From NCBI GenBank assembly GCA_000002435.2, contig CM018793.1: DNA of 64,000 bases; one strand, written 5' to 3'. Origin of the DNA: Giardia intestinalis. Taxonomy: Eukaryota. Shown here in pieces: positions 49,460-50,810 of the stretch (position 1 is its first letter; the number at the start of each line of letters is the position of its first letter). Made by a program: the position numbers and the translations under genes. A model generated the notes under the pieces. That model was given only the letters and a program-made list of their open reading frames with translations, did not search any database and was not told the origin of the DNA.

Positions 49460-50714
49460 TTAGATGTCGGCCGCCATGAGTAAAGATACACCAGCAAGGA
49501 TCCATTTTGCGGGCGGCTCCCTCGTCTTGATCTGGAACGTCCATATGTAGGTGGGGCCGCGCCTCTTTGTCTTGTATACAGGGCAGTCGTAGACGTCCTT
49601 GAGGTCCGCCTTGTCTGCGGTCACTGCCTTTAAGTAGATTGGCGGAAGCTCTGGGAAGAGGTCCTTAAGGATGGAGTCCCTGATACAACCGCCCTTCTTG
49701 TCCCAGCGAGCGCCCTCCATGTAGAGGCCGTAGATATACGCACCCTCTCTTGGCGGAGCGGTGATTTCCGAGAGCTCCTTTTTCGTCACATCGGTGATGA
49801 GAGCCATCTTGTCGAGAGGCCACTGGTTCATCCTGGCAGTTGACTGGAGGACGGCGCGCAGGAAAGATTGCGGGTTGAAAAGCGCTGGAAGCCAGACAGC
49901 CTTTGGAAGATTGAGATCAGATGACCACGAAACCAGCTGGTCGCAGCGTTGTATCATGTCCTTCAACCACGGGCCAAGAGACTTCATACTCGGATATGCA
50001 ACGGCTTCCCATTTAGCAGGCACGACATCCAGGTACATGGACTGCATGAGGGCCTCCATTTGCTCGGAGATGGTCAAGTCGCCCTTGAGGCCCAAAGCAA
50101 GTTCCTTGAGAGACGACTTTATTGTGGAGAGCAGCTCATTCATGCGCCCACACTCCTGTAGACAGACACTGACGTAGGGTGTCCGCTCCTCCACTCGATC
50201 GGTAATCTCCAGCATGTCAAAGTTCTCGGGGAGCATATCCAGGATGTCTTCCAACTGTGCCTTGCAGCGGTCCTCGCGAGAGAGTTCGCCACTAGTGCTT
50301 GTGGCCGAGGTGCGCGGCTGCAACTGCATAAGCATCATGAAAAGGGTGTTTGACTGAGTAGTAAGGAACATGATCTCCGCGTTGGGGTGGAGACCATACA
50401 TCTTCGGCGATTCCTCAGGAAGCGCCTCAGCAATGTATGCCTTGTAGCCGTCGTAGCTCATTGGGGACGGCACAGGGAAGTCTGGGGCGAAGAACTTCCC
50501 GTCTTCAAAGAGAGCATCCGACATCAAGGAGTCCATAAACGAGCGCATGAGCCGGCGATCCAGATCATCGCCGACGTGTCCCCCGTAGAAGATGTCGCAA
50601 AACATGTATTTGAGGTCGTCCCAGGGGATTTTGGTGTTATTTTCTAGGTAGTTGAACAAGACATCCTTGCATATGGTCAGGTCGCCATTGTTGAAGTTGT
50701 AGGGGACGTTCCAA
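49460..50714 (-). CDS. dynein heavy chain, C-terminal exon only (about 418 aa), begins mid-codon after a splice acceptor
   Basis: [55 protein letters not shown] matches axonemal DHC WNIPYEFNESDL...[22 protein letters not shown]; later VYDCPVYKTKRRGPTYIWTFQIKT and KWILAGVSLL are DHC C-terminal motifs; no in-frame ATG at the start (ORF-track start is TTG). Confidence 0.85.
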
Positions 50715-50810
50715 CTGTGTGTTAGTATGTGTCTGGTCAGTAAAGCTGTGAGTAGCAGTATGCCATTTTAAATTTTTGCTGCCATTTTTGCTGCCATAGA
50801 GATTTACATT
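50715..50810 (-). promoter_or_regulatory. 3' half of a split intron preceding the dynein heavy-chain exon: perfect ACTAACACACAG branch/acceptor motif (50715-50726 on the minus strand); upstream extent uncertain
   Basis: Plus-strand CTGTGTGTTAGT at 50715-50726; AG lies exactly at the point where DHC homology begins. Confidence 0.65.
50759..50798. repeat. short tandem repeat (gc)tgccat(ttt) x3 in the spacer between the DHC exon and the glycerol kinase gene
   Basis: gtatgccattttaaatttttgctgccatttttgctgccatag. Confidence 0.4.

Follow-up and report, generated by a model that had tools for sequence, protein, structure and literature searches.

Acceptor half of the split spliceosomal intron DHCB2 and the dynein heavy chain exon that it precedes on chromosome 5 of Giardia intestinalis

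The locus described here lies in a 64-kb stretch of DNA (the window) from chromosome 5 of G. intestinalis WB, in which the proteins of neighbouring genes are exact matches to those of WB (ATCC 50803). On its minus strand the window contains the last exon (exon 3) of a dynein heavy chain gene together with the elements of a 3' intron half (Table 1). The arrangement at the exon start is ...ctgaccagacacatACTAACACACAG/TTGGAACGTCCCCTACAAC... (here and below a slash between sequences marks the exon boundary), which is read as T/TGG AAC GTC; the T at 50714 occupies the third position of a split codon, and it finishes a glycine codon that is opened as GG on exon 2. The tryptophan at 50713 is the first of 417 codons that extend to 49463 and are followed by TAA at 49462-49460, and with the split codon these account for the 418 amino acids from 50714 counted in an earlier sequence-only reading of this DNA. 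That reading had also remarked on the lack of an in-frame start, and indeed the frame has a stop at 50770-50768 with no ATG between it and the exon start, the earliest in-frame ATG (50605-50603) being located 36 codons into conserved sequence.

The exon 3 translation matches the Pfam families AAA_lid_11 (model positions 26-140 of 140) and Dynein_C (complete, 1-309), the two accessions being PF18198 and PF18199. Because the match opens at position 26 of the AAA_lid_11 model, the protein begins in the middle of a domain; exon 3 carries the second part of this domain and exon 2 the first. The best named relatives are DYH9, DYH17 and 'dynein beta chain, ciliary', with 50-57% identity, and by these similarities the gene is classified as one that probably encodes an outer-arm axonemal dynein beta heavy chain (DNAH9/11/17 group; DHC4 in Kollmar 2016). 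When the 2565-residue protein BAJ33527.1 was compared with the 64-kb window by tblastn, residues 2148-2565 alone gave a match, at 50716-49463, which bears out the earlier view that only the extreme C-terminus of a dynein is present. The same search found no dynein sequence in the 13.3 kb upstream of exon 3 (50715-64000), and the gene on that side, a glycerol kinase gene, is on the plus strand with its start at 51074, 360 nt from 50714, just as had been proposed. Exon 3 has been named Dhc-beta C-3 (GL50803_8172) and placed 16 kb from HspC on chromosome 5 (Iyer et al. 2021, PMC8494341), in agreement with the 16.06 kb that separate the HspC (33404) and dynein (49460) stops in the window.

Table 1. 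Features of the DHCB2 acceptor locus, in window coordinates.
Feature	Position	Strand	Basis
Exon 3 (last exon), predicted outer-arm dynein beta heavy chain	49460..50714	-	translation, Pfam, BAJ33527.1 match
Internal ATG, annotated start of XP_001705465.1	50603..50605	-	exact look-up
Extended 3' splice signal ACTAACACACAG	50715..50726	-	sequence; sole exact copy in window
Pairing segment of 3' intron half	50736..50767	-	complement of donor intron nt 5-36
3' intron half, minimum conserved extent	50715..50775	-	WB/GS alignment

Exon 3 is immediately preceded by the 12-nt acceptor motif to which the sequence-only reading had drawn attention (ACTAACACACAG at 50726-50715). In this signal a CTAAC branch-point box is fused to the acceptor AG, so that it abuts the exon at 50714, and it fits the published Giardia 3' consensus CT[AG]ACACACAG (PMC5224939). 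Allowing up to one mismatch, the 12-mer is present in two copies in the window, where 0.26 would be expected; a count of two is reached by 5 of 100 shuffled sequences. Both copies directly precede orphan C-terminal pieces of conserved proteins, one of dynein and the other of Hsp90, which matches the suggestion that the window holds two split-intron 3' halves. The Hsp90 copy is ACTAACACGCAG at 32318-32329 (+), with the orphan piece running from 32330 to a stop at 33402-33404 and covering positions 163-507 of 518 in the Pfam HSP90 model; the segment 32318-33404 (+) corresponds to the acceptor half already known as HspC, from the trans-spliced Hsp90 gene of Giardia.

The conserved 3' intron half of the dynein locus opens, at its 5' edge, with an AT-rich element, AAATTTAAAATGG. 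AT-rich initiators are known in Giardia, and by analogy with these AAATTTAAAATGG is a plausible candidate for the initiator of the exon 3 pre-mRNA, which we would place at 50766-50777. Just upstream of the pairing block, at 50774-50797 (-), there is a tandem duplication of ATGGCAGCAAAA (two copies) that is specific to WB and absent from GS.

A distant dynein fragment ending in a GTATGT donor, with downstream sequence complementary to 50727-50810, had been named as the partner to look for, and exon 2 provides it, pairing with 50736-50767. The donor-half DNA was taken from a contig (L003) of Logan assembly SRR10007608 and not from the WB reference chromosome; the exon-2 protein it encodes is identical to the WB entry. 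Exon 2 (XP_001708535.1) terminates there as ...CCTATAGG/GTATGTTTG, or in a longer view as ...CGGAAGTTCGGTCCTATAGG followed by GTATGTTTGTAATCTGTGTAGTCGCAGTATGCCATT..., and its donor site, GG/GTATGTT, is an extended 5' splice site. Its neighbours on this contig are fibrillarin and SMC genes, neither of which is present in the window, and the SMC gene is convergent with exon 2, overlapping the end of the annotated read-through open reading frame about 155 nt past the splice donor. The literature assigns exons 2 and 3 to widely separated places on chromosome 5 (PMC8494341).

The donor half also carries a cleavage motif. The published 12-nt motif is TCCTTTACTCAA, located 17 nt from the 5' splice site in p68 and 34-93 nt from it in the other four introns (PMC5224939), and 5' intron halves are cut at this motif (PMC3510501). 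In the assemblage A donor we find TCCTTTATTCAA, with one mismatch, at intron nt 88, and in the P15 (assemblage E) donor an exact copy of the canonical TCCTTTACTCAA at intron nt 94; the first of these distances is inside the published range and the second exceeds it by 1 nt.

An identical ACTAACACACAG is located ahead of exon 2 itself, at 1644-1655 of the same contig, where the sequence reads ...CAG/CC ACT GAA GAT AAG... and the exon start gives ...K-ATEDKEEV in the cDNA-derived protein. This is the acceptor of the first split intron of the DHC-beta gene (DHCB1).

Database protein models treat the two sides of the junction separately. XP_001705465.1 ('Dynein heavy chain', 381 aa) begins MFCDIFYGG, found by exact look-up at the internal ATG, and thereby omits 36 conserved codons and the split glycine codon (50603-50713, minus strand). 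XP_001708535.1 (769 aa) is the genomic open reading frame whose dynein part precedes the junction, and its annotation reads through the donor as ...KFGPIG-YVCNL... In contrast, the G. muris entry TNJ29458.1 is correctly annotated, starting from the W. The cDNA-derived BAJ33527.1 (2565 aa), deposited as 'outer-arm dynein beta' and belonging to the same sequence cluster as XP_001705465.1, is unbroken across the junction of exons 2 and 3; the predicted joined sequence is ...CCTATAGG/TTGGAACGTCC..., and the G-W of the protein at this point equals the predicted ...GG/T TGG AAC.

These entries bear on an alternative in which exon 3 is an independent, unspliced gene whose 381-aa protein, initiated at ATG 50605, enters the dynein complex as a polypeptide of its own. 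Such an arrangement would be in keeping with the annotation of XP_001705465.1, and separate translation has been reported for the N-terminal portion of this dynein (Kollmar 2016 and Roy 2012; PMC5100056). Against it, conserved coding sequence with synonymous-only changes continues for 36 codons upstream of the ATG and reaches the AG, from which it follows that ATG 50605-50603 is not the true beginning of the coding sequence, and the Pfam lid domain is split with its first part on exon 2. Moreover, the cDNA-derived protein is continuous over the junction, and 17,724 junction reads have been published for DHCB2 from 22 RNA-seq data sets (Roy 2017, PMC5224939). The cDNA and RNA-seq data effectively refute an independent gene, which we regard as very improbable.

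We then consider the complementarity of the two intron halves. Comparison of the reverse complement of the donor half with both strands of the window gave a best match of 13/13 nt at 50755-50767 (-). Taken alone, a perfect 13-nt match has an E value of 0.12 in the window, and the significance of the pairing derives instead from the extended duplex and its position: by local pairing alignment, and with a few bulges, it extends over donor nt 5-36 and window positions 50736-50767. In duplex tests that set 60 nt of the donor half against 90 nt of the acceptor half (300 shuffles) the cognate DHCB2 halves gave -44.8 kcal/mol compared with -19.4 +/- 3.7 for the shuffles (z -6.8). Four non-cognate or cross-species combinations showed no pairing above background in the same test: the DHCB2 donor with the Hsp90 acceptor half of the window (z -1.7) or with the DHCB1 acceptor half (z +0.5), the WB donor with the acceptor half of a divergent relative, SRR31929897 (z -0.4), and the SRR31929897 donor with the WB acceptor half (z -0.1). 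With the cognate pair at z -6.8 and the non-cognates at background, we conclude that the DHCB2 complementarity is real and specific to the cognate pair. Published work, too, explains the meeting of the two transcripts by such complementarity (PMC5224939, PMC3510501).

Two other measures were less informative. A duplex of 160 x 160 nt gave -78.2 kcal/mol compared with a mononucleotide-shuffle mean of -59.9 (z about -3), which discriminates poorly, and it was discarded as too permissive and replaced by the 60 x 90 nt test. A Smith-Waterman pairing score was moderately discriminating, with z of 4.4 for WB and 2.6 for the SRR31929897 pair. In the duplex test the SRR31929897 donor and acceptor are weakly above shuffles (z -3.0), and blastn found no long perfect complementary match in the acceptor region of this relative. 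In WB the donor half carries two copies of CAGTATGCCA, and duplex prediction pairs the nucleotides between them, donor nt 48-58, with the duplicated 50774-50797 stretch; this suggests a possible secondary helix or an alternative register.

The acceptor half is conserved between assemblages in precisely these parts. WB (A) and GS (B) share 41 consecutive identical nucleotides (50775-50735), 50729-50715 is conserved too, and the sequence further upstream, beyond 50775, is largely unalignable, so that the conservation footprint coincides exactly with the stretch that pairs plus the branch/acceptor box. On the donor side the pairing segment is conserved too, as a comparison of assemblages A and E shows. 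The same codon is split in WB, GS, G. muris and two more divergent relatives, here designated by their Logan assemblies SRR31929897 (donor L006 4944-5130, acceptor L001 4640-5014) and SRR14944325 (L002 1-557). At that codon the acceptor signal is ACTAACACACAG in GS, ACTAACACGCAG in G. muris, and GCTAACACGCAG in both divergent relatives. The first exon base varies, being T in WB, C in GS, G. muris and SRR14944325, and A in SRR31929897, as expected of a third codon position. Within exon 3, codon changes between WB and GS are synonymous in 168 cases and non-synonymous in 3, and between WB and G. muris the corresponding counts are 186 and 36; judged by these substitutions, exon 3 is under strong purifying selection right to the AG.

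Together with the published data, these observations indicate that 49460-50775 (-) is almost certainly the transcription unit that supplies the acceptor side of DHCB2, the second of the split spliceosomal introns in the DHC-beta gene, and we saw nothing that speaks against this reading. The sequence elements, the partner locus, the specific complementarity, the conservation, the purifying selection and a junction that matches the cDNA-derived protein are supplied by the present analysis; from the literature come the RNA junction reads, the evidence that the motif is cut, and the role of the spliceosome. The proposal that this is the terminal exon of a trans-spliced axonemal dynein heavy chain gene is thus upheld, with the donor fragment located, the junction equal to that of BAJ33527.1, and the exon named in the literature. 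The five trans-spliced introns of Giardia have in common GTATGTT, CT[AG]ACACACAG, complementarity and the cleavage motif (PMC5224939), and three C-terminal dynein pieces are reported to be trans-spliced into one mRNA (Roy 2012, as related by Kollmar 2016; PMC5100056).

Two further explanations have a negligible probability. The first is that exons 2 and 3 are joined by cis-splicing of a very long intron, or are contiguous exons separated by a break in the assembly. Their common location on chromosome 5 (PMC8494341) would permit this, but the 13.3 kb upstream on the exon strand are without dynein and the nearest upstream gene is divergent; moreover, the 5' half has its own cleavage motif, with the SMC gene convergent shortly past the donor. 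Independent transcripts have also been described (PMC5224939, PMC3510501, PMC5100056). A misassembly is opposed by the fact that the separation recurs in assemblies made independently from several strains and species, in one sample with the two exons on contigs of more than 60 kb each. The second, that an orphan fragment lacking both a start codon and adjacent upstream exons is a pseudogene relic of a dynein 3' end beside a chance match to an intron motif, is refuted both by the cDNA and by the pattern of selection, the 417-codon frame being intact with 168 synonymous and 3 non-synonymous changes to GS and 91% amino acid identity to G. muris, the motif being kept at exactly the same position in five taxa, and a specific complementary partner being present.

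Expression of the DHCB2 acceptor unit is best explained by the mechanism already published, for which we infer the transcription start and the order of the steps. A short pre-mRNA would be initiated in the AT-rich region just upstream and would contain at least about 60 nt of 3' intron half ahead of exon 3, and the distant locus would give a separate pre-mRNA with exon 2, GTATGTT, the pairing segment and the cleavage motif. The 5' half would be cleaved at the TCCTTTA[C/T]TCAA motif, and annealing of the halves through donor nt 5-36 and 50736-50767 would rebuild an intron-like structure in trans. The spliceosome, using the CTAAC branch site and the AG at 50715, would then ligate ...GG to T/TGG..., and the joined mRNA would encode dynein through to the C-terminus.

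DHCB2 is already known, having been described in 2011-2012, experimentally verified, and re-confirmed several times. The early descriptions are reportedly those of Kamikawa et al. 2011 (Curr Biol) and Roy et al. 2012 (Mol Biol Evol). We find no difference from the published DHCB2: the organism, exon, junction, 3' motif, complementarity and cleavage motif of the partner are all the same. Giardia split introns are a textbook oddity in which the spliceosome makes broken nuclear protein-coding genes whole again as RNA, with pairing of the intron halves as its guide, and as DHCB2 is one of five documented cases, finding it again brings no new biology. The elements of a split intron are nonetheless recognisable from raw sequence, and the model start of XP_001705465.1 is still 36 codons late.

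There are similarities with other trans-splicing systems. The Giardia Hsp90 split intron, with its HspN and HspC parts, was reportedly described by Nageshan et al. 2011. It resembles DHCB2 in having an orphan C-terminal exon after ACTAACAC[A/G]CAG, base-paired intron halves, and a partner exon that is far off on chromosome 5, and differs in the gene and in the pairing sequence; the DHCB2 donor scores at background level with the Hsp90 acceptor. Trans-spliced group II introns are found in organelles, as in psaA of Chlamydomonas and the nad genes of plant mitochondria. Here too, separately transcribed halves reunite by pairing and join the exons of one protein-coding gene, but group II introns are self-folding organellar ribozymes, whereas DHCB2 is nuclear with the spliceosomal signals GTATGT, CTAAC and AG, and we take it to need no group II domains. 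In the spliced-leader trans-splicing of kinetoplastids and nematodes a common non-coding leader is added to many mRNAs. As in that process and in Drosophila mod(mdg4), the spliceosome unites exons of two separate transcripts in DHCB2; unlike spliced-leader addition, DHCB2 joins two unique coding exons, with specificity coming from the long complementarity of the intron halves. The mod(mdg4) reaction depends on other elements (PMC4387717).

The forward value of the analysis lies only in the orthologous split loci from the more divergent relatives. At the protein level, exon 3 of these relatives is 77-78% identical to that of WB, compared with 91% for G. muris. In SRR31929897 the donor and acceptor are on separate contigs of 64 and 69 kb; the donor, recovered for this one of the two relatives, is GG/GTATGTTTC, of the GTATGTT type, and carries TCTTTTATTCAA, which resembles the cleavage motif, at intron nt 175. 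The intron halves of SRR31929897 are unrelated in sequence to those of WB, yet they pair weakly with one another, as noted above. The GC content of the SRR31929897 dynein exons is 64-65%, and that of the SRR14944325 contig is 69% overall. Both relatives share the DHCB2 split, which may widen its published phylogenetic range, and we tentatively suggest that the fragmentation may predate the split between G. intestinalis and G. muris, although we would put the chances of this at somewhat below even. If the relatives branch outside the sequenced Giardia species, then the fragmentation of DHCB2 would be older than the G. intestinalis/G. muris split, and if the suggestion is true the loci would form a first comparative series for the co-evolution of split-intron pairing.

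In WB, GS, SRR31929897 and SRR14944325 alike, dynein exon 3 has beside it a Tsr3-like gene (Pfam Ribo_biogen_C and Fer4_RLI), whose orientation is not the same throughout; this gene is located at 48314-49405 (+) in the window and at L001 3946-4638, L002 1840-2724 and L009 3627-4379 in the other contigs. By tblastn, no match to it was found in G. muris within 2.5 kb on each side of the exon (L008, CM016925.1). The adjacency looks like an old microsynteny. In WB the Tsr3-like and dynein genes are convergent, with their stops about 55 nt apart. In G. muris a flavodoxin-like gene is located upstream on the same strand and ends at 2405, with the acceptor AG at 2499; given this spacing, the entire 3' intron half and any promoter must be contained within about 94 nt, or exon 3 is co-transcribed with the flavodoxin-like gene.
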